NCBI GenBank assembly: GCA_902781945.1
Contig: CACZLE010000029.1
Location: 26,395 to 58,394 of the forward strand
Origin: an uncultured Eubacteriales bacterium
GTDB taxonomy: Bacteria > Bacillota > Clostridia > Christensenellales > Aristaeellaceae
DNA: 32,000 nt
Direction: 5' to 3'
A program made the translations under genes and the position numbers. Shown one piece after another: positions 9,616-26,485 of the stretch (within the stretch, counting starts at the first letter, position 1; every line of letters starts with the position of its first letter). A model generated the notes under the pieces. It ran no database searches. It saw only the letters and a list, made by a program, of their open reading frames with translations, and had not been told where the DNA came from.

Positions 9616-9975
9616 ATGGATCGTCTGGATGAAATTTTCCGCATGCAAAAGGCCCTGAACGACGACATCATCGCCCGCCGCCACCTGGAGGGCATCAGCG
9701 ATACCGAATGGATCCAGAAGCAAACCCTGGCCATGCTCAGCGAGATGGCCGAATTGCTTAATGAAGTCAACTTCAAATGGTGGAAGAATCCCAAGCCCGT
9801 GGACGACCACGCCGTCAAGGAAGAGCTGGTGGACATCCTGCACTTCTTCGTCAGCATGTGCCTGCGGGCGGGCATGACGCCCCAGGAGATGTATGATATT
9901 TACATGGAAAAGAACAAGGAAAACTTCAACCGCCAGCTGGGACTGAGCAGCAAAGAGGGCTATAAAGCGCCCTGA
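9616..9975 (+). CDS. All-alpha NTP pyrophosphatase, dimeric dUTPase-like (MazG superfamily)
   Basis: GGAGG at 9606-9610 precedes ATG 9616. Motifs LSEMAELLNEVNFKWWK and EELVDILHFFVS are typical of dimeric dUTPase-type proteins. Confidence 0.65.
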   Translation: MDRLDEIFRMQKALNDDIIARRHLEGISDTEWIQKQTLAMLSEMAELLNEVNFKWWKNPKPVDDHAVKEELVDILHFFVSMCLRAGMTPQEMYDIYMEKNKENFNRQLGLSSKEGYKAP

Positions 9976-9986
9976 AAGGAGCCGCC

Positions 9987-10793
9987 ATGAAGATCTTCAT
10001 TTCCGCCGACATCGAAGGCACCACGGGCATCGCCCATTGGAACGAGACCGAAAAGAACCATCCCGACTGGAAGTACTTTGCCGACCAGATGACCCGGGAG
10101 GTGGCCGCCGCCTGCCAGGGCGCCATGGACGCGGGCTGTGAGGATATCGTGGTCAAGGACGCCCACGATTCCGCCCGCAACATCGATCCCCGGGGCCTGC
10201 CGGAGTGCGCCCGTCTCCATCGCGGCTGGGCCGGTCTGCCCGGCTCCATGATGATGTGCCTGGACGGCAGCTTTGACGGCTGCGTGTTCACCGGCTATCA
10301 CAGCGGAGCCAGCTGGGACACCAGCCCTCTGTCCCACACCATGAACCTGGGCAACTACTACGTCCTCATCAACGGCCAGCGCATCTCCGAAATGACCATC
10401 AACGCCCTCCTGGCCAGCTATTACAAGGTTCCGCTGCTCTGCGTCACCGGCGACAAGGGCATCTGCGACGCCGCCAAGGCCGCCAACCCCAACATCGAAA
10501 CCGTAGCCGTCAACGAGGGCTGCGGCAACGGCGTGCTGTCCATCCATCCCGATCTGGCCGTCCGCCGTATCCGCGAGGCCGTGGCCCGCGCCCTGCAAAA
10601 GCCCGACCTCTCCGTCATGCTCTACCCCATGCCCGAGCATTTTGACGTGCAGATCTGCTACAAAAAGCACCAGTCCGCCCTCAGCGCCTGCCAGTATCCC
10701 GGCGTCCGCCGCGTGGACGACACCACCGTGGGCTTTGAGACGGACGACTACCTGGAGGTCCTGCGGGCATTCAAGTTCATTCTGAGTGATTGA
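9987..10793 (+). CDS. M55 family D-aminopeptidase (DppA-type)
   Basis: MKIFISADIEGTTGI...VKDAHDSARN is the M55 N-terminal signature. AAGGAG lies 6 nt upstream of the start. Confidence 0.85.
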   Translation: MKIFISADIEGTTGIAHWNETEKNHPDWKYFADQMTREVAAACQGAMDAGCEDIVVKDAHDSARNIDPRGLPECARLHRGWAGLPGSMMMCLDGSFDGCVFTGYHSGASWDTSPLSHTMNLGNYYVLINGQRISEMTINALLASYYKVPLLCVTGDKGICDAAKAANPNIETVAVNEGCGNGVLSIHPDLAVRRIREAVARALQKPDLSVMLYPMPEHFDVQICYKKHQSALSACQYPGVRRVDDTTVGFETDDYLEVLRAFKFILSD

Positions 10794-11048: not shown

Positions 11049-11684
11049 TTATTTCCCCAGCAGCGGCCTGGAAATGTGCTCGTTGCACCATTCGATCACC
11101 GGGCCCATGCAGAAAGCCGTCAGGATGGTGCCCACGCCCGCGATGGCGGTGAGCTCCTGGAAGGTCTTGCCCGACAGCAGGAACAGCACGCTGCCCAGCA
11201 GCACGCAGATCACATCCGTCAGGATGCGGCAATAGCGAAAGCGCATCTTGTGCCAGGTTTCGCTGATGATCAGCGCCACGGCGTCATAGGTGGAGACGCC
11301 CAGATCGGCGGTGATGTACAGCGATCCCATGGCGGACAATCCCAGCAGGGCCACGGGCACCAGCACGACGCGCAGGGCCATGGAGGGAGCGGGGATCAGG
11401 CCGCACAGGGTCTTGTAGGTGAATTCCACCACATAGCCCAGCAGAAACATGTTGATCAGCGTGGCCAGGCCAATATAGTGCCGGTCCGCGATCAGCGCGA
11501 AGGTCAGCAGCAGGGCGTTTAATATCACGTACAGAGTCCCAAAGGAAATGGGGATCATGGCGTGGGCTCCGTTGACGAAGCACTGAAAGGGATCCACGCC
11601 AAAGGCGATAAACTGAAACAGTCCGGCAAACATGCCGCCCACCAGCACGCCCGCCACGCTCATCAAAATCCTTCTCGTTTTCAT
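11049..11684 (-). CDS. YczE/YyaS/YitT-family (DUF6198-like) integral membrane protein
   Basis: 211 aa and polytopic, with an ADLGVSTYDAV motif. GGGAGGA precedes the ATG. An ATGA overlap joins its start to the upstream gene's stop. Confidence 0.7.
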   Translation of the reverse strand: MKTRRILMSVAGVLVGGMFAGLFQFIAFGVDPFQCFVNGAHAMIPISFGTLYVILNALLLTFALIADRHYIGLATLINMFLLGYVVEFTYKTLCGLIPAPSMALRVVLVPVALLGLSAMGSLYITADLGVSTYDAVALIISETWHKMRFRYCRILTDVICVLLGSVLFLLSGKTFQELTAIAGVGTILTAFCMGPVIEWCNEHISRPLLGK

Positions 11685-15482: not shown

Positions 15483-15640
15483 GGGGATGCACCTCCATCA
15501 TGGTTCCGGTTTTTTCATGGAATAGAAAAAGCCGACGGATGAAACCACCCGCCGACATACTGATCTTGTATCATCGGATGCCTGCACCGGGCGAAACGAC
15601 ATTCGCAGGGTGAGGAGCGGGCGGCTCCTGCTTCATGCAA
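15483..15640 (-). promoter_or_regulatory. infC operon 5' leader (~160 nt), candidate L20-responsive leader
   Basis: A long untranslated leader runs from a consensus promoter to infC and contains a terminator hairpin. Position matches the L20 leader known in Bacillus; the family assignment is not verified. Confidence 0.45.
15521..15556 (-). terminator. Attenuator-type terminator inside the infC leader
   Basis: Minus-strand RNA GUCGGCGG-gugguuucau-CCGUCGGC followed by UUUUUCUAUU. Two G-U pairs mean the stem forms only in the minus-strand transcript. Confidence 0.5.
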
Positions 15641-15645
15641 CGAAT

Positions 15646-15674
15646 ATTATAACAAACAACCTCCGCCCTGTCAA
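15646..15674 (-). promoter_or_regulatory. Consensus sigma-A promoter of the infC-rpmI-rplT operon
   Basis: On the minus strand: TTGACA (15669-15674), 17 nt, TATAAT (15646-15651). Confidence 0.75.
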
Positions 15675-15692: not shown

Positions 15693-18104
15693 TTACTGTC
15701 CCATTTCCACCAGGATCACTTCCATCTCCCGGTCCATTGTCAGCGCAAAGACCGCCTGCCCGCCGCTGATCTCCATTCCCGGCAGCGCCGCCCCGGCCAG
15801 GGCCTCCGTCGGCACGCTGAACCGGATCTGTCCCCGGATATCCAGCAGCCGCCCGCCTTTCTCAAAGCCCATCAGCAGCCATTTTCCCTTTTCCGTCTCC
15901 GCCTTCACGATCACCAGGCTGCCGCCGGGCACGTCCCCCGCGGCGCTGGCCGGGGCGATCACCGTCGTCCGCGCCTCGCCCTCCGCGTATCCGCACACCG
16001 GGCATGCCCGCGCTCCGTCCAGCTCCACCAGGGTGCAGCCCACGGCGCTGCTTTCGCCGCAGCGGCGGCAGATGGCGCTGTGCGTCCCCGCCATGGCAGG
16101 CGTCCACGCCCCAAAGTCATGCCCCAGGGCGGAGGTCCTCCGCTGCTCCGTCAGCACCTCGCCGCACATACCGCAATGGCTGCCCGCGGTCAGCCCGGAC
16201 CGGGTGCAGGTGGCCGCCACGGCAGCGTCCGTCACGGGCGTATGCACGTGCGCCCATTCCACAGGCTCCGGCGCGGTCAGCCTCGGCACCACCTCCTGTG
16301 CTACCAGCACCTGGTTGCACACGCTGCAATGCTTACCCTCCGTCAGGCCCGTGCTGGTATAGGTGGCGGGCACAGCCGGGTCGATCACCTCCGTATGCCC
16401 CAGCGCTTTCTTCTCCACATAGGTGGTGTAATCGCACCGGGAGCAGGTCTGGTAGGCGTCCCAGCCGATAGCGGTACAGGTGGGAGCCTGGGCCGCGTGG
16501 TCGATCAGGTCATGACCCAAGGGTTTTCCATATTCCACGCCGCAGGTTTCGCATGTAGCCTTTTCCGTGCAAGTGGCCGTGCCACCGCTGTGGGCGGCGG
16601 TTTCCGTCTCGCCGCAGCCGCGCTTACAGCTGCGGAAATGGTTTACGCCATCCCCGGCATCCACCCAAATGTTCCAATCGTGGCCCAGGGCGCTGCGTGT
16701 GATCGCTTCGGCAGTGGTCGGGTTTTTGCCCTCGTCGTCCGTAAAGACCATGCCGCAGCCTGGCTGTTGGCAATAATAATATTCATAATTGCCATCCGCA
16801 GTACAGGTAGGCTCTATGGCGCGCACATACAGCAAGTCGTGTCTCAGGGTCTCGCCATATTCCTGTCCGCAGATTTCGCATATGGCTTTTTTCGTGCAGG
16901 TGGCCGTGCCGCCGCTGTGGGCTTCGGTTTCCATTCTGCCGCAAACGCAGCTGCGGGAATGGGTGCCGTCCCCATTGTCCTGCCAGTCGCCGTAGGTATG
17001 AGACTCCAGGAAGAAATAGGTGTCGCAATGATAGCAGTACGGCTTATGCCCGTTTTCGCCGCGATCCTCATACCACATCTCATGCTCGGGGATGCTGCCG
17101 TAATCATGGTCGCACTTTTCGCAATGGGGCTGACGCCCGCAGGTGGACGCCCACCGGTCGTAATGCGCTTCCGTGGTGGTCGCGCCGCAAGTGCATTCGC
17201 CCTTGCAGGTATTGTCGTCCACATAGGTCCAGCTGTAGCTGTGGGGTGCCTCGTCTTTCCGCTCGGTGCAGCGGGAGCAGGCGTAGTAATGGGTGGTATC
17301 GCCCTGGGTCCAGGCGGTGGCCCAGTCGTGATCCAGGGGGGCTCCGTATTCCTGGCCGCAGATCTCGCAAACCGCCTTCTCCGTGCAGGTGGCGGTGCCA
17401 CCCTTGTGCGCGGCGTATTCGCCGTATTCCGCCTTGCACTTTTCACAGACGGCTTTGGCGATGCAGGTGGCTGTACCGCCGGAGTGGTCCTCCCTGCCGA
17501 AGAGCCCATCGCAGTGATAGCAATTTATCTTGTGCTGTTCGTCAGTTTTATACTCATACCAATATTCATGATCTAAGACTTCGCCGTAATACTCTCCGCA
17601 GTCCTTGCACTTGCGGGGATAGCCGCACCAATGACTGCCGTTCCAGACGTGCTCCACTGTGGTCTCCGCGCCGCAGCCGCTGCGCCTGCAGGTGCGCTTG
17701 TGGTTTTGATCGTCTACCTTCGTCCAATTTCCCCAATCATGCAAACGTATTTCATTTCTCCAAGTACAGCCTTCGTTGGTACAGGCGAAATAATCGTAGG
17801 TTTCATCATGGGACATGGTAGTAGCCCAGTTGTGGGGGGCCCATTCGCCGTATCTACTATTGCAGCCCTCGCAAATCGCGTTATCGTAGCAGAGGGCCGT
17901 GCCGCCAAAATGATCCTCATACGTGTCATAACCACAACCCGAGCAATAAACATGATGCTGGTTATCATCATACCAGCTGCTTTCTAATTCATACTCGCTG
18001 CAATTGGGACATTGACGATAATTATCCGACGCCTTCGCCCCCTGCATGGACGTCAACACCATCACCAGCGCCACCAGCGCCAGGGCAAGAAACATTTTCT
18101 TCAT
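15693..18104 (-). CDS. Secreted Cys/His-rich repeat protein (803 aa) built from zinc-knuckle-like modules
   Basis: AAGGAGGA precedes ATG 18104. Signal peptide MKKMFLALALVALVMVLTSMQGAKA. By my count about 58 Cys lie between residues 32 and 704, mostly as CxxC pairs within three recurring module types. The last ~100 aa are Cys-free. Confidence 0.85.
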   Translation of the reverse strand: MKKMFLALALVALVMVLTSMQGAKASDNYRQCPNCSEYELESSWYDDNQHHVYCSGCGYDTYEDHFGGTALCYDNAICEGCNSRYGEWAPHNWATTMSHDETYDYFACTNEGCTWRNEIRLHDWGNWTKVDDQNHKRTCRRSGCGAETTVEHVWNGSHWCGYPRKCKDCGEYYGEVLDHEYWYEYKTDEQHKINCYHCDGLFGREDHSGGTATCIAKAVCEKCKAEYGEYAAHKGGTATCTEKAVCEICGQEYGAPLDHDWATAWTQGDTTHYYACSRCTERKDEAPHSYSWTYVDDNTCKGECTCGATTTEAHYDRWASTCGRQPHCEKCDHDYGSIPEHEMWYEDRGENGHKPYCYHCDTYFFLESHTYGDWQDNGDGTHSRSCVCGRMETEAHSGGTATCTKKAICEICGQEYGETLRHDLLYVRAIEPTCTADGNYEYYYCQQPGCGMVFTDDEGKNPTTAEAITRSALGHDWNIWVDAGDGVNHFRSCKRGCGETETAAHSGGTATCTEKATCETCGVEYGKPLGHDLIDHAAQAPTCTAIGWDAYQTCSRCDYTTYVEKKALGHTEVIDPAVPATYTSTGLTEGKHCSVCNQVLVAQEVVPRLTAPEPVEWAHVHTPVTDAAVAATCTRSGLTAGSHCGMCGEVLTEQRRTSALGHDFGAWTPAMAGTHSAICRRCGESSAVGCTLVELDGARACPVCGYAEGEARTTVIAPASAAGDVPGGSLVIVKAETEKGKWLLMGFEKGGRLLDIRGQIRFSVPTEALAGAALPGMEISGGQAVFALTMDREMEVILVEMGQ
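16527..17489. repeat. Intragenic DNA repeats encoding the HSGGTATC...C.E.CG.EYG module
   Basis: GTGCA(A/G)GTGGCCGTGCC(A/G)CCGCTGTGGGC at 16567-16595 and 16894-16922 is 27/29 identical. Related copies are at 17383-17411 and 17461-17489, with similar flanks (TATTCC..CCGCAG.T.TCGCA). Confidence 0.75.
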
Positions 18105-18180
18105 CTTTCCATCCTCCTTACCGTTTGTTCCGAGCCGGGCAGGTATAAATCGGCGTTTTCTCCGCACGTTTCTATAAACC

Positions 18181-18189: not shown

Positions 18190-18205
18190 TAAAAAATAGG
18201 CAAAA

Positions 18206-18236
18206 CCGCGAGACTTACAGAATTGTAAGCCTGCGG
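18206..18236 (-). terminator. Probable intrinsic terminator after the response-regulator gene; contains the perfect palindrome CTTACA-N4-TGTAAG
   Basis: Minus-strand RNA CCGCAGGCUUACA-AUUC-UGUAAGUCUCGCGG (about 13 bp with one bulge) followed by UUUUGCCUAUUUUUU, 24 nt after the RR stop. Confidence 0.5.
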
Positions 18237-18259
18237 CTCTCAGTCTGTCGATTTCAGGT

Positions 18260-18931
18260 TTATATATCCTCCAGCGCGTACCCCTCGCCCCGCTGGAAAC
18301 CCACCCGAACGGGAGCCGAAGCGCCGTCCAGCTTTTTATTGAGGCGGGAAACGGTGGTGTGCAGGGCGCTGTGATCCCCCGCCGAGGATACGCCCCATAC
18401 GGCGGAAAACAGCGCATCCCGGGAAATCATTTGATGGGGATTTTGCAAAAGCGTAAGCAAAATCAAATATTCCTTTTGGGTGAGCAGCAAATCCCGGTCG
18501 GCAAAATACGCGGTCCGCTTCACCGTGTCCAGCCGCAGCCCGGCATGGGAAAGGAAGCGCTTTTTTCGTCCCGCAGCCCGCAGCCGGGCTTCGATCCGGG
18601 CCAGCAGCACCCCGATATCATAGGGCTTGGACAGGTAATCATCCCCGCCGGCGCGCAAGCCTTCGATGATCTGCTGGTTTTCCCCCAGGGCGGAGAGAAA
18701 CAGGATGGGAATATCATACTGGGCCTTGATTTGCCTGCACAGCGCCAGCCCGTCCGCGTCCGGCAGCATAATGTCCAGCACGATCAAATCAACGTCGTGG
18801 GTTTTGAGCATTTCCAGACAGCCGCGCCCTGTATCGGCCTTTAGTACGGCGTAATCCTCCATCACGAGCGCTTCGGCATTGATTTCCATAATATGAGGAT
18901 TGTCCTCCACCAGCAGGATGCAATAACTCAT
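18260..18931 (-). CDS. OmpR/PhoB-family response regulator
   Basis: Receiver domain ILLVEDNPHI...DLIVLDIMLPDADG with a C-terminal winged helix (LTQKEYLILLTLL...HTTVSRLNKKL). ATG 18931 overlaps the HK stop (ATGA). Confidence 0.9.
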   Translation of the reverse strand: MSYCILLVEDNPHIMEINAEALVMEDYAVLKADTGRGCLEMLKTHDVDLIVLDIMLPDADGLALCRQIKAQYDIPILFLSALGENQQIIEGLRAGGDDYLSKPYDIGVLLARIEARLRAAGRKKRFLSHAGLRLDTVKRTAYFADRDLLLTQKEYLILLTLLQNPHQMISRDALFSAVWGVSSAGDHSALHTTVSRLNKKLDGASAPVRVGFQRGEGYALEDI

Positions 18932-20862
18932 GATTTTACCTCCTTGGGAACGGTAAAGCGGAATATGCTTCCCTCCGGCCCGGTAGAAGCCAACGACAGT
19001 TCGCCGCCGTGCAGGCGCACGGTGTCCGCACAAATGGAAAGCCCCAGTCCCCGGCCCTCATCGGTGGAATAGCCCTTTTCAAAGATGTGGGGCGCATCCT
19101 CCGGGGCGATGCCGCTGCCGGTGTCCGAAACGGATATTTCCACCTGGCTCCCATTGTCTTTCGCGTCCACGGTGATCTGCCCGCTGTCGGTGTGGCGGCT
19201 GGCGTTGACGATCAGGTTGATAAGCACCTGCAAAAGTAATTCTGCGTTGCCGTGAAGCTGGGCCGCGCTGTCATTGTGGAAGATGAGAACATTCTGTTTT
19301 TTGTCGCAAACCGGCGTCATGATGGCAGAGGCGCTGCGAAACAGCTCGTCGATTTTCACGGCGTTCATTTCAGCGGTTTTCGCCTTCCCGTAGGTGTAAT
19401 CCATGAGCTTGGAAACCATCTCCGCCAGCCGATCCGCCTCGCTGTGGATGGTTTCCAGGCGCTCCGGCGTTTTTTCGGAAAGTTGGTCGCGCAGCATTTG
19501 CCGCTCGATCAATTGGGCGTAGCCGGAAATGACGGTGAGGGGCGTTTTCAGCTCATGAGCCACGGTGCGCAGGAAATCGTTGTTGGTGGCGTTCATCTGC
19601 AAAAGCAACTCGTTCCGCTGGCGCTCTTCCTGGAGTTGAGCCATTTGCCTGCTGATCTTTTCATTGTTCACGATGGCCAGCAGCAGGATGCACACCAGCA
19701 TGGCCAGCGGCGTGATGCCAAAGTGATTGACGGAGGAATTGCTGCCGGTGGCCATGCCCTCCCGGATAAGCATGAAGGTGAAAAAGAGGATGGCAAGAAG
19801 CGCGATGCCCTCCAGCGCGCTGGGCCTCTGCTTTCGGAAGGAAAGGAACAGGCGGAGCAGGAACCAGAGGGCGAAAGGCAAACAGGTGTAATAGCAGATA
19901 TGGCACAACAGCACCAAATCATGAGTATCCAGAATAAAATGCAGCGCTGACAGGACGAGGCACAGGCAGGCAAAAACCAGCAGCGGCTTTTTCCCCGCGG
20001 ATCGCGGGAAGAAAGCGGCCATCAGGAACACTGTCGCCATGGGAATCCAGCTCACGTCCAGAATCACCAGGCGGTATTCGATAGAAAAGCTGATGTCTGC
20101 GGGCAGCAGATGCTGCACAAAGAAGAACTGGTTCCGCAGGGCGATGATCAGGCAGCACAGCGCCAGCGCGGCGTATTCCCGGTTTCGCTGGAAAGCGGCG
20201 CAGAACAGGAAATAGCAGCACAGCATCAACAGCCCGCCGCTGATCGTCATGGCGTTCAGGCTCAAGCCCCGCTGGTATTCATCGATATTTTCCGGGGTAG
20301 AAATCAGGGTATGCTGAATAAACCCGCCGTCATTGTGCATATAATTGGCGTATTGATAGAGGATCTCCGTTTCTCCGCTGTCATCAAAATACAGCGGCAG
20401 GGTAACATACCGCCCCTTTGGGATCGCCTGGGCAGGGTCATCCGACACATAGCCGATGCTACGCACCTCTTGCCCGTTCACAAATATGCGGGTGCTGTAA
20501 TCAATGGAATAGGAACAGAGGGAAAGATAGGTATGGGGCTGTGCCTGGATACGCAGCCGCCAGGTGCCCTTTGTGGCATTCAAAGGGGCGTCGTTGTCCT
20601 TTTCCGGAGCGGAAGCGGGATCGGCAAACAGATCTGGGGAAAGGAGCTGTCCCGGATAATAATCCCAATGATTGACCAGATGATAAACGTCGGCGGAAAA
20701 ATCCACCTCCCGCGCGTCCAGCACGCCATCCTGAGGGTATAATCCGGGAAACTCCGTTTGCACCCGGCCTTCACAATACAGCAGGAATGCCACCACCAGC
20801 AGCAGTGCCAGAGCAGGCAGTAGAAAACGCCGCAGGATACTTCCTATTTTCTGCTTGTCCAT
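18928..20862 (-). CDS. Sensor histidine kinase with an extracytoplasmic domain and 7-TM receptor module (7TMR-DISM-like)
   Basis: N-terminal anchor, a ~170-aa external domain and seven predicted TM helices. H-box LRTVAHELKTPLTVISGYAQL; ATPase motifs NLIVNASRHT, DTGSGI and GLGLSI. Confidence 0.9.
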   Translation of the reverse strand: MDKQKIGSILRRFLLPALALLLVVAFLLYCEGRVQTEFPGLYPQDGVLDAREVDFSADVYHLVNHWDYYPGQLLSPDLFADPASAPEKDNDAPLNATKGTWRLRIQAQPHTYLSLCSYSIDYSTRIFVNGQEVRSIGYVSDDPAQAIPKGRYVTLPLYFDDSGETEILYQYANYMHNDGGFIQHTLISTPENIDEYQRGLSLNAMTISGGLLMLCCYFLFCAAFQRNREYAALALCCLIIALRNQFFFVQHLLPADISFSIEYRLVILDVSWIPMATVFLMAAFFPRSAGKKPLLVFACLCLVLSALHFILDTHDLVLLCHICYYTCLPFALWFLLRLFLSFRKQRPSALEGIALLAILFFTFMLIREGMATGSNSSVNHFGITPLAMLVCILLLAIVNNEKISRQMAQLQEERQRNELLLQMNATNNDFLRTVAHELKTPLTVISGYAQLIERQMLRDQLSEKTPERLETIHSEADRLAEMVSKLMDYTYGKAKTAEMNAVKIDELFRSASAIMTPVCDKKQNVLIFHNDSAAQLHGNAELLLQVLINLIVNASRHTDSGQITVDAKDNGSQVEISVSDTGSGIAPEDAPHIFEKGYSTDEGRGLGLSICADTVRLHGGELSLASTGPEGSIFRFTVPKEVKS

Positions 20863-21004: not shown

Positions 21005-22018
21005 TCAGTATCTCCGACTCCCGGTCTGCCTTTCATCGGTCACGTCGTAGAGCCGCAGGCCCTTTTCTTCGATATACCGCCGCTGATAATGATACAGCAG
21101 GTCTCTCTGGCCGTACCAGCGGTCATTTTGCGGATCGCCGTACAGGGCGGCCAGCTCCTCCATGTCCGGCAGCGCCTCGTAATACGCCTCGTCCAGGGCT
21201 TCCATCTCGGCCATGGTTTCGTCAAAGGGCTGCCCCTCCAGCCGGGCGATGTTCTCCGGCGTCAGGGACAGCAGCAGCATGCGCTTTTCCATGGGATGAA
21301 AGCCCTTTTCGAGCCAGGACGCCTCGGACATATACGCCTGCCCATTGATCAGCCCTTGGACCGTGGCGGGCAGGACGTCAAAATCCCGCTGGGAAAACCG
21401 CACCGCCTCCAGGCTGATGCCCCGGCCCTCGCTATGCGGGACAAAGCACCGGATATTTTCCATGCCATGCTCCCGCAGCAGGCTGACCAAAGCGGCGGCA
21501 TCCTCCGCGTTCTCGTGGGTCAGCGGGATGCCTGCGCTGAGCTCAAAGCCGATTTTCAAGGCGCAGTCGATCATGCGCACCAAGTACGCGAAATCCCCCT
21601 TGCGCCCCGCGAACCGGTCATGATAGTCCTCCAGGCCGTAAAAGGTGAAGTTCAGGCGCTTCACCCCGGCCTGCCGGATCTCCCCCAGCCACGATGCCAG
21701 CGCCGCACCCTCCCGGAACCTCACGCCGTCCATTTGCAGCATCTCCGCAAACACGGAGCCGATGCGCCGCAGGAAGTCCAGGGCCTCAAAGAGCCTCGGA
21801 TGATCCATGCTGTACCCAAAGGAAAAATGGAATTGAAGCTCCGGCCTTTCCTTTTTGATCCAATCATAAAACCGCCCCGCGTAGGCCTGGCTTCGTTCAT
21901 AATCTGCGCCCACAGGGTGCCCATCCCAGCGCAGCAGGCAATAGCGGCAGCGGTTATAACAGGGGACGCACAGCGTCTGCACCAACACAGACGCTGTGCG
22001 CACATTTTGCTTACTCAT
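21005..22018 (-). CDS. Radical SAM domain protein of unknown function (337 aa)
   Basis: CX3CX2C motif CYNRCRYC at residues 20-27. ATG 22018 lies inside the last codons of glpK (ATGAGTAA). The track ORF's upstream extension overlaps glpK and lacks support. Confidence 0.8.
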   Translation of the reverse strand: MSKQNVRTASVLVQTLCVPCYNRCRYCLLRWDGHPVGADYERSQAYAGRFYDWIKKERPELQFHFSFGYSMDHPRLFEALDFLRRIGSVFAEMLQMDGVRFREGAALASWLGEIRQAGVKRLNFTFYGLEDYHDRFAGRKGDFAYLVRMIDCALKIGFELSAGIPLTHENAEDAAALVSLLREHGMENIRCFVPHSEGRGISLEAVRFSQRDFDVLPATVQGLINGQAYMSEASWLEKGFHPMEKRMLLLSLTPENIARLEGQPFDETMAEMEALDEAYYEALPDMEELAALYGDPQNDRWYGQRDLLYHYQRRYIEEKGLRLYDVTDERQTGSRRY

Positions 22019-23507
22019 CCTTGGCCCAGTAGAGCACCGCGTCCACGGCCCGCTTCCAGCCGTGCAGCAGCTGCTCCCGCCGCTCCTGATCCATGGCGGG
22101 CACGAATTTCTTTTCCACATGCCAGCCGTTGGCGGTCTGCTCCAGGCTGTTGTGGACGCCCACGGCCAGGCCCGCCAGCAGGGCCGCGCCCAGGGCGGTG
22201 GTCTCCAGCACCGCGGGGCGCTGGATGGATACGCCCGCGATGTCCGCCTGGAACTGCATCAGGAAATTGTTGGCCGTCGCGCCGCCGTCCACCCGCAGGT
22301 TTTCGGGCTTCTGGCCGATGTCCTGAGCCATGGCCTCAAACAGATCGCGGCTCTGATAGGCGATGCTCTCAAGACCCGCCCTCACGATCTGCTCCCGGCC
22401 CGTGCCGCGGGTCATGCCAAACAGGGTGCCCCGGGCGTACATGCTCCAATGGGGCGCGCCCAGGCCCGTGAAGGCGGGCACCAGGTACACGCCGTCGCTG
22501 TCGGGGATGGAGCTGGCGATGGCCTCGCTCTCGCTGGCCTTCTTGACAAATTCCATTTCGTCCCGCAGCCATTGCACCGTGGCGCCGCCCATGAACACGC
22601 TGCCCTCCAGGGCGTAGGTGGGCTTGCCGTTCAAGCGCCAGGCCATGGTGGTCAGCAGGCCGTTTTCCGACAGGCGGAATTCGTCGCCCGCGTTCATCAG
22701 CATGAAGCAGCCCGTGCCGTAGGTGTTCTTGGCCATGCCCTTTTCAAAGCAGGCCTGGCCGAACAGCGCCGCGTGCTGGTCGCCCGCCATGGCGGCCACG
22801 GGGATCTCGCACCCCAGGATGCTCTCGTCCAGCATGCCGATCACCTCGGCGTTATCGATGACCCGGGGCAGCAGCTCCCGCGGGATATCCATGATCCTCA
22901 GCAGCTCGTCGTCCCAATCCTGGGTATGGAGGTTGAAGAGCATCGTGCGCCCGGCGTTGGTGGCGTCGGTGACGTGGGGATGGCCCTTCACCAGATGCCA
23001 GGCCAGGAAGCAATCAATGGTGCCGAAGCACAGTTCGCCCTTCCGGGCCCGCTCCCGCACGTTCAGGGCGTCCAGCAGCCACTGCAGCTTGGTGCCGCTG
23101 AAATAGGCGTCCGGCACCAGGCCGGTCTTTTCGCGGATCATCTCCGCGTAGCCGTCCTTCACCAGCTTTTCCACATAGCTGGCCGTACGGCGGCACTGCC
23201 ACACAATGGCGTTATACAGCCATTTGCCCGTCTCCCGTTCCCACAGCAGGGTGGTTTCCCGCTGGTTGGTGATGCCGATGGCGGCGATCTCCTGGGGATC
23301 GATGCCGGTGTTGCGCACAGCCGTCCGCAGGGATTCGATCTGCGTGCTCAGGATGTCCGCCGGATCGTGCTCCACCCAGCCGGGATTGGGATAATGCTGC
23401 TTGAATTCCTGGGCCGCCGAGCCCACCATATGTCCCTCGGTGGTAAAGATGACCGCGCGGGAGGACGTGGTGCCCTGATCCAGGGCCACAAGATACCGCT
23501 TATTCAT
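22011..23507 (-). CDS. glpK: Glycerol kinase
   Basis: MNKRYLVALDQGTTSSRAVIF... and full-length FGGY kinase similarity (498 aa). AAGGAG lies 10 nt upstream of ATG 23507. Confidence 0.95.
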   Translation of the reverse strand: MNKRYLVALDQGTTSSRAVIFTTEGHMVGSAAQEFKQHYPNPGWVEHDPADILSTQIESLRTAVRNTGIDPQEIAAIGITNQRETTLLWERETGKWLYNAIVWQCRRTASYVEKLVKDGYAEMIREKTGLVPDAYFSGTKLQWLLDALNVRERARKGELCFGTIDCFLAWHLVKGHPHVTDATNAGRTMLFNLHTQDWDDELLRIMDIPRELLPRVIDNAEVIGMLDESILGCEIPVAAMAGDQHAALFGQACFEKGMAKNTYGTGCFMLMNAGDEFRLSENGLLTTMAWRLNGKPTYALEGSVFMGGATVQWLRDEMEFVKKASESEAIASSIPDSDGVYLVPAFTGLGAPHWSMYARGTLFGMTRGTGREQIVRAGLESIAYQSRDLFEAMAQDIGQKPENLRVDGGATANNFLMQFQADIAGVSIQRPAVLETTALGAALLAGLAVGVHNSLEQTANGWHVEKKFVPAMDQERREQLLHGWKRAVDAVLYWAKDE

Positions 23508-23632: not shown

Positions 23633-26485
23633 TTACTGGATGCGAATGCCGTACATGAACGCGTTGTCCTTGCTGCAAGTACCAATGACCAACATATCAT
23701 TGTAGACCGCGGGGCTGGCCTGCACCTCGCCGCCCAACTCCAGGGTGTTGACCACCGCGCCGGTGAGGCCGTTCAGCAGATACAGCCGTCCGTTCATATC
23801 CGCCTGCACGATCCAGCCCTTGCCGTCCTTGTTGTACACGGCCACGGGGGAGGAAATGGCGGTGGCGTTCAATTCGCGCTGCCACACCACTTCGCCGGTC
23901 AGCTTATCCAGGGCCAGCACGGTGGCGTGCTTGCCGTCGCCGGTCATGTTGACGGTGAAGATGGCCAGGTCGCTCAGCTCGTTCTGGCCGATCAGGGGGC
24001 TGGCCTTCAGGCCGCTCAGCTGATCCTTGTTGTACACGCACTTGATCTCATAGCTCCACACCTCTTCGCCGGTCAGGGCGTCCAGGCGGCGCAGGGTCAC
24101 GGGCTTGTTGTTTTTCAGACGGGCATAGGCGGTGTTGCCGGTATAGAGGCCCAGATCGCCGTTTGCGTCAAAGTCCAGGGCCAGGGCGGCGTCGGTATTG
24201 TCGCCCGTGTCGATGGCCCACACGGTCTTCATGGTGTTGCTGTCCACGCAGGTCAGGATGCCATGGGTATCGGCGGAGTAGATATAGGGACCATAGGCGG
24301 CCACGCTGGTCTCCGCGCCCACGTCCTTCTCCTGCTCGCTCTTGGCCTTGACCTTGAGGAAGGACACGTTCTTGTTGATGTTCAGGCTGGGGCTGTCGGT
24401 CACGGTGCCGTCGTCGTTCAGGAACTTGAAGTCCGTGTTCATGGCCACGGTGTAGATCAGGCCGTTTTCACCGGCGATGATCAGGGAATCGCTGCTGCGG
24501 TCAAAGATCGCGCTGCCGTCGAAGGCGCCGTTGCTGGCGTACTGATCCTGCTGATTGCTCTTGCGTCCGTTCAGCAGCATGATCTCCTTGCCGTCCAGCA
24601 GGCTGAATACCCGCAGGCCTATGTCGCCGGTCTTGTTGGGCAGCTTCGATATGGCCTGGCCAACGGCCAGATAGGGATACCCCTGGGGATTGACGGCCAC
24701 GCTGGATTTCAGCGGATAGCCCACGTTGATGGCGTCGCGGGTGGGCTGGCCGTCGTTCAGATCCAGGAAGTGGATCTTGCCGTCCAGGCCGCCGAAAATG
24801 ACCTCCTTGAGCACGCTCACGTCGCGCTTTTCGTCATAAATATTCATCCACAGGGTGCGCTGTTCGGTCATCAGCTTGATGATGGAGGGCTGGCCCGTCC
24901 AGCCCACGCCGTACAGGGTGCCGCTGTCCGCGGTGCGCAGGCTGCCCAGCTCGTATTTCCATTCCACGCTCAGGCTTTCCTGCTGCACGTCCACGGTACC
25001 GTAGGCGGCGTTCTGGCGGAAGTTGCCGCCGCGGAAGGCGGTCACGCCGTTATACAGGGAATAGGTCTCCGGCGCGCCCATGCTGATGCTCTCGGTGCGG
25101 TTCAGGGTGTCCGTCACCTTCTTGCCCGCCGAATAGACGGTCTCCACCAGGCCCAGCTTCTTGGGATCGGTATTTTCGGAGCCGGTCACCTCCAGCTGCG
25201 GCATGGGAGACGGGGTGGGCGTGGGCGAGGCGGTGGGCGTCGGGGTGGGGGTGGGCGTAGGCGTCGGCGTGGGAGTCGGCGTCGGGGTAGGCGTCGGCGT
25301 CGGCGTGGCCGTGGGGATGGGCGTAAAGGTGGGCGCCAGGGTCGGCGTGGCCGTGGGCGCCTGGGTGGGCACGGCTGTGGGGACCGGCGTGGGCGCTTCG
25401 GTCACTTCCACCACCGCCGCGGGGGCCTCCGTCACGGGGACCGGGGTGTCGGTGGGGACCGGCGTGGGGGTGGCTGTGGGTTCCGCCGTAGGCGTCGCCG
25501 TGGGAACGGGCGTCGGCGTGGCCGTGGGTTCCGGCGTGGGCGCGGTGACCAGCAGGGTCAGCTTCTTGTCCGACTGCCGCCAGGTATTGCCCTCCTGCAC
25601 GGCGGCGTACACGTCGCCCACATACGCATCCTCAAAACGGATGGTCACCACCCAGGTGGTGTTGTCGTCGGGGTCCATGCACTGACGGGAGCTGGGCAGC
25701 AAATTGCCCTGCACGTCCGTGATGCCCACATCCTGCACCGCCTTGGTGGTGGTGATGCTGAACTGCATCTGACCGCCCACAGTGATGGAGGAATTGGCCG
25801 TCTGGAACAGGTGGACGTCCGCCGGGCTCGTATCGATGCCCAGCACGCCGGCCAGCTTGTCGCGCAGATCGTACACCGCGCTGATAAAGCCGCCGCCGTC
25901 CGCGGGGCGGTCCACCGCCTTGGGCAGGAACACCATGCCCGCGGCGAACAGCGCGATGACCAGCAGCAGGCACAGCAGGGCCGCCAGCCATCCATGGCCC
26001 CGGCCACCCTCGTCATCGTCGTAATAATCGTTATCCTGGGGATACAGATCCTCCCCCAGCTGGGAATCCTGGGCAGAATAGCGCGGCGGCTCGGGCGGCA
26101 GCTCTCCCGCGCCGTAAACCGGCACGTCCTCCTCCGGCAGGGTCTCAGGCTCCGGCTTGACCTCCTGCCGGGGCGGCTGGTCCGCGAAGGGATCAAAATC
26201 CAGCTCCTTGCCCGCGCCCACGGGCGGCATTTTCCGGGTGGGCTCGCTGCTCACATCCAGCTCCGCCAAAAAATCCTCCGATACCGGCACTTCCGGCCTC
26301 GCCGGGGCGGACGTTACCTCCTCCGGCTGCGCCGGGGCGGGCTCTTCTATGATTTCCGGTTCCTCTGGCATGGCAGCCGGTACGGGCGTTTTTTCCACCG
26401 GCAGGCCGCGATGGCGGTCCGAGCGGCGGCGGCGCACGTAGGGCGTCTGCTCCTGCGGGGTTTTGGGATCAAAATCATCAGCCAT
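23633..26485 (-). CDS. Single-pass membrane protein: acidic/Pro-rich cytoplasmic N-terminus, PT-rich linker, C-terminal PQQ-like beta-propeller
   Basis: 950 aa. TM WLAALLCLLLVIALFAAGMVFL. Propeller-type repeats (GKIHFLDLNDGQ, LDALTGEEVW, LDKLTGEVVWQ, GRLYLLNGLTGAVV). AAGGAG precedes ATG 26485. Confidence 0.85.
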   Translation of the reverse strand: MADDFDPKTPQEQTPYVRRRRSDRHRGLPVEKTPVPAAMPEEPEIIEEPAPAQPEEVTSAPARPEVPVSEDFLAELDVSSEPTRKMPPVGAGKELDFDPFADQPPRQEVKPEPETLPEEDVPVYGAGELPPEPPRYSAQDSQLGEDLYPQDNDYYDDDEGGRGHGWLAALLCLLLVIALFAAGMVFLPKAVDRPADGGGFISAVYDLRDKLAGVLGIDTSPADVHLFQTANSSITVGGQMQFSITTTKAVQDVGITDVQGNLLPSSRQCMDPDDNTTWVVTIRFEDAYVGDVYAAVQEGNTWRQSDKKLTLLVTAPTPEPTATPTPVPTATPTAEPTATPTPVPTDTPVPVTEAPAAVVEVTEAPTPVPTAVPTQAPTATPTLAPTFTPIPTATPTPTPTPTPTPTPTPTPTPTPTPTASPTPTPSPMPQLEVTGSENTDPKKLGLVETVYSAGKKVTDTLNRTESISMGAPETYSLYNGVTAFRGGNFRQNAAYGTVDVQQESLSVEWKYELGSLRTADSGTLYGVGWTGQPSIIKLMTEQRTLWMNIYDEKRDVSVLKEVIFGGLDGKIHFLDLNDGQPTRDAINVGYPLKSSVAVNPQGYPYLAVGQAISKLPNKTGDIGLRVFSLLDGKEIMLLNGRKSNQQDQYASNGAFDGSAIFDRSSDSLIIAGENGLIYTVAMNTDFKFLNDDGTVTDSPSLNINKNVSFLKVKAKSEQEKDVGAETSVAAYGPYIYSADTHGILTCVDSNTMKTVWAIDTGDNTDAALALDFDANGDLGLYTGNTAYARLKNNKPVTLRRLDALTGEEVWSYEIKCVYNKDQLSGLKASPLIGQNELSDLAIFTVNMTGDGKHATVLALDKLTGEVVWQRELNATAISSPVAVYNKDGKGWIVQADMNGRLYLLNGLTGAVVNTLELGGEVQASPAVYNDMLVIGTCSKDNAFMYGIRIQ
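25199..25545. repeat. Imperfect hexanucleotide (GGN-GTN on plus strand) tract encoding a ~115-aa Pro/Thr linker that includes a (TP)12-like run
   Basis: GGCGTCGGCGTGGGAGTCGGCGTCGGGGTAGGCGTCGGCGTCGGC... It translates on the minus strand as TPTPTPTPTPTP... Codon use varies between units. Confidence 0.8.

Follow-up and report, generated by a model that had tools for sequence, protein, structure and literature searches.

We describe an 803-residue protein that is encoded on the minus strand (15693..18104) of a 32,000-nt window, i.e., the whole stretch of DNA that was analysed, of contig CACZLE010000029.1 from an uncultured Eubacteriales bacterium. The protein consists of little more than a long array of small Cys/His modules, and we consider it likely to be a metal-stapled extracellular rod of ~22 core-less β mini-modules that works like the stalk of an IgA protease. 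It is an extreme version, head-less, anchor-less and reduced to the array, of a widespread but uncurated module that was described in 2025 in one protein, the M64 IgA protease of Thomasclavelia ramosa (PMC12237041, PMC12415215). New in the protein studied here are the all-array build, the combination of three module flavours including the so far undescribed unit (i), and the lack of both anchor and head.

The mechanism we propose is as follows. Residues 27-712 would form a head-to-tail chain of ~22 tiny modules, each of them a β-hairpin or a three-stranded β-sheet without a true hydrophobic core. One tetrahedral Cys/His metal site per module, most likely occupied by structural Zn2+, would hold the module together and staple it to its neighbour. 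That is, each site would combine a boundary His with three ligands from inside the module: for unit (i) these are Cys-x5-Cys-x2-Cys, for unit (ii) His-x3-Cys-x1-4-Cys, and for unit (iii) Cys-x10-Cys-x2-Cys. The outcome would be a long, thin and fairly rigid extracellular rod with a 91-residue β-rich domain at its C-terminal end. Its extended length would be ~55-80 nm, a value extrapolated from ~110 Å per three subdomains of the IgA-protease domain ZBD1, with unit (i) modules being shorter than these. Such a rod would serve as a spacer or projection element, the length of which shifts by gain or loss of unit (iii) copies.

Module anatomy and ligand conservation

The reading frame 15693..18104 is a complete coding sequence of 803 codons plus stop according to the open reading frame (ORF) list and its translation, and comprises a signal peptide, the Cys/His module array and a C-terminal β domain. 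Residues 1-26 (18027..18104, minus strand) read as a typical Sec/signal peptidase I signal (MKKMFLALALVALVMVLTSMQGAKA followed by S), i.e., MKK, a 16-residue hydrophobic core and AKA in front of the Ser. Residues 2-18 are helical in the AlphaFold2 (AF2) prediction, and no lipobox Cys was found in the signal peptide of the translation. Secretion, which a first-pass annotation of the window had already assumed, is supported by this sequence reading. We preferred the ATG at 18104 to an upstream TTG at 18203 because of the strong Shine-Dalgarno sequence AAGGAGGA (18112..18119, minus strand; read from sequence), which lies 7 nt 5' of the ATG.

With regard to composition, the protein contains 58 Cys, all of them within residues 32-704, as well as 39 His and 17 CxxC motifs. 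Residues 27-712 are 8.5% Cys and 5.7% His, compared to 1.5% and 2.0% in eight neighbouring proteins. In 2000 composition-preserving shuffles, CxxC occurs on average 4.8 and at most 12 times. The first-pass estimate of about 58 Cys is exact, and the 17 CxxC observed exceed the maximum of all shuffles.

The same annotation had sorted the knuckles into three recurring units. For unit (i), all five proposed copies were recovered at their positions by a strict pattern, and a looser core (C-x5-C-x2-C-x3-4-YG) adds residues 160 and 322 for a total of seven. For unit (ii), a stricter pattern identifies 3/5 copies, and a manual parse all five plus further variants. The four copies of unit (iii) correspond to three strict copies and one variant at residues 434-450. 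The repetition of unit (i) at the DNA level was reproduced as well, with 16567-16595 and 16894-16922 sharing 27/29 nt. The best family reported by a repeat finder is a 74-nt unit in five copies, one per strict unit (i), which are 61-81% identical and dispersed instead of contiguous; near-identical tandem DNA repeats were not found in the gene by this approach. Within the window, the Cys/His module is confined to this ORF.

Judging from the sequence, units (i) to (iii) are better understood as flavours of a single four-ligand module of 27-54 aa with His at its borders, such that the initial picture of three independent, interleaved module types gives way to consecutive variants. Cutting the protein manually at the recurrent His results in 21 consecutive segments of 27-54 aa. 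Each segment is flanked by a boundary His and holds either three Cys (units i and iii) or an internal His and two Cys (unit ii). All 58 Cys can be placed in 22 four-ligand sets, typically His+3Cys or 2His+2Cys, with zero left over. The size of the array of putative metal sites is revised from ~25 knuckles to 22 four-ligand sets. Pairwise hhalign comparisons of units (i), (ii) and (iii) are in register at the ligands but weak (probabilities of 6, 34 and 56%); a common descent of the three units is plausible.

The array starts with an N-terminal cap (residues 27-64; 17913..18026, minus strand) of the form CPNC-x14-HH-x2-CSGC, which reads as a Cys4-type set of C32, C35, C54 and C57. Within a 41-sequence family alignment, C32, C35, H50 and C57 are invariant. 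The core array (residues 65-689; 16038..17912, minus strand) comprises twenty consecutive modules, each with a boundary His and three further Cys/His ligands. They start at H65, 91, 122, 152, 179, 207, 233, 259, 288, 314, 341, 369, 396, 422, 475, 505, 531, 570, 621 and 662, where the module 570-621 is degenerate and shows Tyr582 where a Cys is expected. The last module (residues 690-712; 15969..16037, minus strand) reads C690-x10-C701-x2-C704 and is not followed by a His; Glu708, conserved in at least 90% of the sequences, is a possible candidate for its fourth ligand.

By analogy with ZBD1 of the IgA protease, we counted each boundary His as part of the next module in the chain, because His968 of ZBD1 ends subdomain II while the proposed other three ligands lie in subdomain III. 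In its sequence, ZBD1 subdomain III reads without a C-terminal His (domain boundaries as in PMC12237041). Both array ends show peculiarities. The cap CxxC (C32, C35; window positions 18000-18011) comes on top of a full unit (ii)-like set (H50, C54, C57, H65), and the terminal CxxC 701-704 (window positions 15993-16004) belongs to a module with three Cys and zero His. The ligand book-keeping is therefore ambiguous at either end, and the ends may differ functionally from the internal modules.

To assess ligand conservation, a hidden Markov model (HMM) of residues 475-570 was run on 286 family proteins, which provided 3,546 different instances of the module. Conservation in the profile is highest at the ligand columns, with, in their order, H 100, H 83, C 98, C 92, C 91, C 99, C 98, H 99, C 97, C 100 and C 98%. 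One boundary ligand position shows H in 65% and C in 17% of the instances. Non-ligand positions are conserved, too, namely Gly, Thr and Trp/Tyr. The conserved aromatics of units (ii) and (iii) comprise W in profile column 6 (82%), W/L/Y in column 72 and Y in column 75.

Of 257 instances of unit (i), 151 are preceded by His and 106 by Cys, with no other residue at this position (a unit (iii) ligand pattern and knuckle classifier, both poorly registered, were used solely for such boundary-residue counts and for total knuckle counts, run lengths and motif absence). In a distant subfamily of 770-850 aa, this residue is systematically Cys instead of His. Such an exchange of His and Cys fits a metal ligand and would not be expected of a disulfide partner. 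Furthermore, a module holds 3 or 2 Cys, and the total Cys count is odd in 66/120 homologues. At the sequence level, the Cys/His clusters resemble metal sites more than disulfides, and ligand conservation, the His/Cys swap and the odd Cys counts all speak for the metal-binding knuckles that the first-pass annotation had put forward.

Kinship with the IgA protease stalk and distribution of the module

Neither the whole protein nor its modules belong to a curated family, as had been suspected for the whole architecture. Pfam provides no match for the whole protein at E<=10 and NCBIfam nothing meaningful, and isolated modules stay below the Pfam threshold (best: Zn_ribbon_PaaD, 17.3 bits vs. a cutoff of 27). 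The profile searches did however reveal homology to the domains ZBD1 and ZBD2 of the IgA protease. When compared to PDB sequences, the profile of residues 475-570 (A2) shows one bacterial match, 9qa6_A 'IgA protease' (E 0.0017), along with zinc fingers (E 0.04-3) and rubredoxin (E above 1). The matches in 9qa6_A are confined to chain residues 849-882, 911-979 and 1075-1143. Given a 30-residue signal-peptide offset, these stretches are ZBD1 (879-1008) and ZBD2 (1101-1171) of UniProt entry Q9AES2. A profile of the full-length family (A1) matches the same regions (E 0.0078).

The best direct alignment was obtained via BLASTP for residues 422-508 (16581..16841, minus strand), which are collinear with ZBD1 subdomains I-II (34% identity over 96 columns, E 1e-4) such that nine out of nine Cys/His ligands are aligned. 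Other unit (ii) and unit (iii) copies also align with segments of ZBD1, albeit less well (BLASTP E 0.014-1.6). In sum, the sequence comparisons provide moderate support for homology between the modules and ZBD1/ZBD2. A fibronectin match found by phmmer for the whole protein among PDB sequences (E 0.5) was taken as chance.

ZBD1 and ZBD2 of PMC12237041 are identical to CTD2 and CTD4 of PMC12415215, which both describe the M64 IgA protease (IgAse/ThomasA) based on AlphaFold models and small-angle X-ray scattering (SAXS). The former reports subdomains that are three-stranded β-sheets, with sets of 2His+2Cys or 3Cys+1His as putative structural zinc sites at their interfaces; the three subdomains of ZBD1 span ~110 Å, and disulfides are seen neither in experimental structures nor in predicted models (PMC12237041). 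Its authors also note that ZBD1 subdomain I distantly resembles the TFIIS zinc domain (PMC12237041). According to the latter, SAXS data of isolated CTD2 fit a fully extended rod, called an "uncharacterized periscope domain fold", and single core-less β-sheets would leave aromatic residues exposed (PMC12415215). The protein can thus no longer be regarded as a type without explanation, as first annotated, since homologous modules are described there as a putatively zinc-binding, rod-like stalk (PMC12237041, PMC12415215). No other description of the module was found in the literature beyond these two papers.

Structure prediction is in line with a β-rich array. For residues 475-570 (16395..16682, minus strand), a segment of 96 aa in which units (ii), (i) and (iii) each occur once, AF2 predicts only short β-strands when given a 49-row family alignment, with a mean pLDDT (predicted local distance difference test) score of 95.2 and a predicted template modelling score of 0.70. 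This model is consistent with sheets of 2-3 strands. Foldseek found no match to it in the PDB below E 1 (best E 1.3), and the sole match in BFVD is a fragment with SLH domain, which probably carries the same modules. Membership in the treble-clef or zinc-ribbon folds, as considered initially, finds no backing in these results, which hold nothing beyond sub-threshold Pfam zinc-ribbon matches. Foldseek matches of the full-length model were discarded as noise (mean pLDDT 49).

The Cys-free C-terminal domain (residues 713-803, 91 aa; 15696..15968, minus strand) is predicted to be β-rich and belongs to no known family. The last Cys is residue 704, in agreement with the ~100 Cys-free residues annotated before. 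AF2 places strands at residues 712-762 with low to moderate confidence. This C-terminus can be aligned at 22-24% identity with that of the distant 770-850-aa subfamily, and a third subfamily has a different one. A profile of the domain matched no Pfam or PDB family; a match to fatty-acid-binding proteins (37 residues, E 0.005) was judged to be a chance β-hairpin similarity. Searching an index of 5.8 billion proteins with short queries (tri-module and C-terminal domain) returned a few short fragments and added nothing.

The module itself is widespread. Among 8,000 scored candidates, more than 5,470 are relatives of the whole protein, all unnamed or 'hypothetical'. When run exhaustively on 1.84 billion representatives of 50% identity clusters, the module HMM matches 24,846 of them at E<=1e-3, 11,177 at 1e-10 and 2,420 at 1e-30. 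Module-bearing proteins are up to 7,000 aa long, and up to 76 matched stretches were found in one protein (set P0139-P0286). The partner domains within twenty of the largest carriers (BspA-type LRR, Listeria-Bacteroides repeat, cohesin, dockerin, DUF1542, aBig_2, NAGPA and X25) are all extracellular or surface domains. Annotated carriers include those of Lachnospira eligens ATCC 27750 (a MucBP-domain protein) and Vescimonas fastidiosa (an adhesive-domain protein). This bears out the remark in the first annotation that segments like unit (iii) occur in large surface proteins of gut Firmicutes.

Genomic relatives of the protein stem from metagenome-assembled genomes (MAGs) of the ruminant and human gut, i.e., from Christensenellaceae, Oscillospiraceae, Acutalibacteraceae and unclassified Clostridia. 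Close full-length homologues from metagenomes show 66-81% identity and a length of 734-1,103 aa. What mainly sets them apart is how many unit (iii) copies follow one another. Uninterrupted unit (iii) runs comprise 2 to 6 copies in close homologues and up to 12 in a subfamily with 27-29% identity. At the sequence level, this copy-number variation is a stalk-like length variation.

A few phage records encode module-bearing proteins as well. One homologue (P0025, 37% identity) is located in a mobile-element/prophage-like region (L038 1-12180) with a holin and a PG_binding endolysin, and the region also harbours three serine recombinases, an extracytoplasmic function (ECF) sigma factor and a PrsW protease.

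Genomic context

Directly upstream of the gene, an OmpR-type response regulator (RR; 18260..18931, minus strand) with Response_reg and Trans_reg_C domains is encoded, preceded by a sensor histidine kinase (HK; 18928..20862, minus strand) that combines an N-terminal extracytoplasmic region and a 7TMR-DISM-like membrane domain with HisKA and HATPase_c. Extracellular domains of 7TMR-DISM proteins are generally proposed to bind carbohydrates. The order of HK, RR and array gene is kept at homologous loci of two related MAGs, i.e., L002 (6556-11497; identities of 46% for the array protein, 66% for HK and 69% for RR) and L004 (6984-10933; 94, 83 and 83%). The array protein hence diverges faster than HK and RR in L002. 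The flanks on both sides of the cassette differ, with pta-ackA and recJ in L002 and radical SAM and infC here.

At a third locus (L001), the homologue (74% identity) has no adjoining HK/RR, and HD-domain and PIN genes are found upstream instead. The contexts of other homologues are a mobile-element/prophage-like region or a TetR gene with a LytTR-type two-component system. The two-component system pointed out in the first-pass annotation thus does adjoin the gene and is kept in L002 and L004, but it is absent in L001 and in distant homologues, which rules out a family-wide HK/RR partnership. A local regulatory cassette of HK, RR and array gene is plausible, and it is possible that the RR at 18260-18931 regulates the array gene.

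The 155-bp gap between the RR stop and the start of the array gene holds a promoter-like site, TCGACA-18-TACAAT (18222..18251, minus strand), identified by consensus match alone. A 9-nt inverted repeat (AGACTTACA / TGTAAGCCT, 4-nt spacer) at 18211-18232 overlaps with this site and is a possible operator candidate or small hairpin.

Upstream of the kinase lies the gene of a radical SAM protein (21005..22120, minus strand) without further assigned domain. It is probably unrelated to the array protein: a link in the manner of ribosomally synthesized and post-translationally modified peptides was rejected, given that the gene lies beyond HK/RR, is not conserved at L002/L004, and that the array protein has a Sec signal. 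Downstream of the array gene, infC-rpmI-rplT has its own perfect σ70-like promoter (TTGACA-17-TATAAT with TG; 15646..15674, minus strand), which starts 19 nt past the stop codon of the array gene. A terminator-like hairpin with an 11-bp stem (15531..15556, minus strand) follows ~90 nt after this promoter, just upstream of infC. Promoter and hairpin (15531-15674) look like a leader or attenuator for infC-rpmI-rplT; an Rfam scan of the window reported no L20 leader and no other family.

Further ORFs without clear assignment are located in the window. Within a 950-aa ORF (23633-26485, minus strand), only a fragment of a PQQ/BamB-like β-propeller is recognised at residues ~850-940; its first ~850 aa are without family and very low in Cys/His. 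Two ORFs of 236 aa (9960-10670) and 211 aa (11049-11684), both on the minus strand, have no Pfam family.

The proposed rod, its alternatives and known systems

Several observations weigh against the rod we propose. First, no anchor domain (LPxTG, SLH or other) was found by motif search, Pfam or NCBIfam, as was already annotated for LPXTG, SLH and choline-binding anchors, and no recognisable head domain was found by Pfam or the parse, in which the modules begin at residue 27. A spacer role therefore falls short of both its usual ends. The C-terminal domain would then be an anchor or head of a new kind, unless the protein is released. Which end of the rod would face the cell, like the role of the C-terminal domain, we can only infer. 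Second, free Zn2+ is expected to be scarce in the sulfidic gut habitat, where ~22 sites would have to be filled after Sec export. Third, AF2 models the full-length protein poorly (mean pLDDT 49), and the kinship of unit (i) with units (ii) and (iii) is weakly supported (hhalign 6-56%). The homology to ZBD1/ZBD2 is statistically moderate (E 1e-4 to 8e-3) because the modules are short, and unit (i), i.e., H-x-GGTATC-x5-C-x2-C-x3-YG, has seven copies here and none in the IgA protease. Finally, the zinc sites of the IgA protease are themselves putative, "pending experimental validation" (PMC12237041).

Among the alternatives, the one that survives best, albeit unlikely in our view, takes the module array itself as an adhesin or ligand surface for a glycan or a host or plant polymer, which would be compatible with metal stapling. 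The conserved Trp/Tyr of units (ii) and (iii) would provide the contacts, as they are exposed if the sheets are core-less (PMC12415215), but these aromatics may merely stabilise such sheets. The co-occurrence of the modules with MucBP, BspA-LRR, cohesin/dockerin and X25 as well as the 7TMR-DISM class of the adjoining kinase fit this alternative; the ZBDs of the IgA protease, on the other hand, are dispensable for substrate cleavage and even hamper it (PMC12237041).

We assign a small probability to a metal buffer or scavenger, i.e., a protein that binds ~22 Zn2+ or other thiophilic ions for acquisition or detoxification, perhaps under two-component control, with the fold being secondary. The Cys/His sites are indeed very dense, there is no head or anchor domain to give a stalk its task, and in L002 and L004 the cassette of HK, RR and array gene persists between flanks that differ. 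Conserved Gly, Thr and Trp/Tyr together with the ordered β prediction (pLDDT 95) are however typical of structural sites and not of metallothionein-like sponges, and the same modules sit in thousands of adhesin- and enzyme-like surface proteins. The genomic context also disagrees with a buffer: the 7TMR-DISM-type sensor of the kinase has no known link to metal sensing, no metal transporter adjoins the gene, and the two-component system is unlinked in L001 and distant homologues.

A more speculative version of the rod, which we deem improbable, is a free, "all-stalk" product of the cassette, whose folding, rigidity or end-to-end assembly is metal-dependent. Here, the conserved CxxC pairs near both ends (C32/C35 and C701/C704) might act as half-sites that share a metal head to tail and join molecules, similar to zinc hooks or clasps. 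If true, anaerobic gut Clostridia would have an extracellular fibre or matrix that depends on metal.

That the repeats are knotted by disulfides without any metal, in analogy to EGF-like domains, is very improbable, even though an extracellular, Cys-rich protein with regular spacing invites the thought. Modules with 3 or 2 Cys do not offer even sets, His is conserved as strongly as Cys, His and Cys alternate strictly at the boundary (151 to 106), and Cys totals are odd in the 66/120 homologues mentioned. Moreover, the IgA protease shows no disulfides in its structures or models and needs reducing agents to remain monodisperse, and all relatives stem from strictly anaerobic gut or rumen MAGs. 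Least credible of all is a redox role, be it as a redox protein or as an extracellular conduit for electrons, with haem or with Fe bound by the Cys/His sites: Cys-rich sites can bind Fe and weak rubredoxin matches exist (E above 1), but none of the 17 CxxC is a CxxCH (a motif search found neither this motif nor LPxTG), which rules out a multihaem cytochrome. The ligands form sets of His+3Cys or 2His+2Cys instead of Cys4, and genes for cytochromes or for Fe-S maturation do not adjoin. Moreover, the sites would be ~3 nm or more apart by analogy with ZBD1, which exceeds the roughly 14 Å generally cited as the upper limit for efficient electron tunnelling between redox centres.

The proposed metal-stapled rod is of interest beyond this gene. 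The module is found in ~25,000 clusters and in giant proteins of gut and rumen Firmicutes, yet has no Pfam or NCBIfam model and was described only as a by-product of two 2025 papers. Zinc-finger-like sites are regarded as an intracellular solution, and extracellular proteins usually use disulfides. If our reading is true, an anaerobe-specific extracellular rod stapled by metal would stand for a general, alternative principle of building cell surfaces. Being an almost pure array with all three flavours, the protein offers a convenient minimal model for the family, its structure and its metal stoichiometry. A curated model derived from it would annotate long, so far unassigned stretches in thousands of microbiome surface proteins.

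Compared to known systems, the protein resembles zinc ribbons and fingers (TFIIS ribbon, C2H2, rubredoxin knuckles) in its CxxC knuckles, which would sit on β-hairpins and contribute to a tetrahedral Cys/His set. It differs from them in the ligand order His...[Cys/His]...Cys-x-Cys, where one ligand comes from the module boundary, in its extracellular location and in the tandem arrangement of its modules in arrays of dozens. Periscope and stalk repeats (G5-E of SasG/Aap, SHIRT and Rib; PMC12415215) build elongated extracellular rods from tandem, small, core-less β modules of varying copy number, as the modules of our protein would do. There is however no sequence relation, the canonical copies are near-identical in DNA compared to 61-81% here, and our protein lacks a cell-wall anchor. 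In Aap, zinc dimerises the protein via His/acidic surface sites, whereas the Cys/His sets studied here would saturate the metal within one chain.

The closest known system is the IgA protease, where 3 + 2 subdomains form a stalk between the catalytic head and an SPQTG sortase anchor. Our protein, in contrast, consists of a signal peptide, ~22 modules and the 91-aa C-terminal domain and nothing more, i.e., it comes without anchor and without enzyme or adhesin head. What it shares with ZBD1 and ZBD2 are His-bounded subdomains that offer 2His+2Cys or 3Cys+1His sets, with its 58 Cys distributed over 22 of them.

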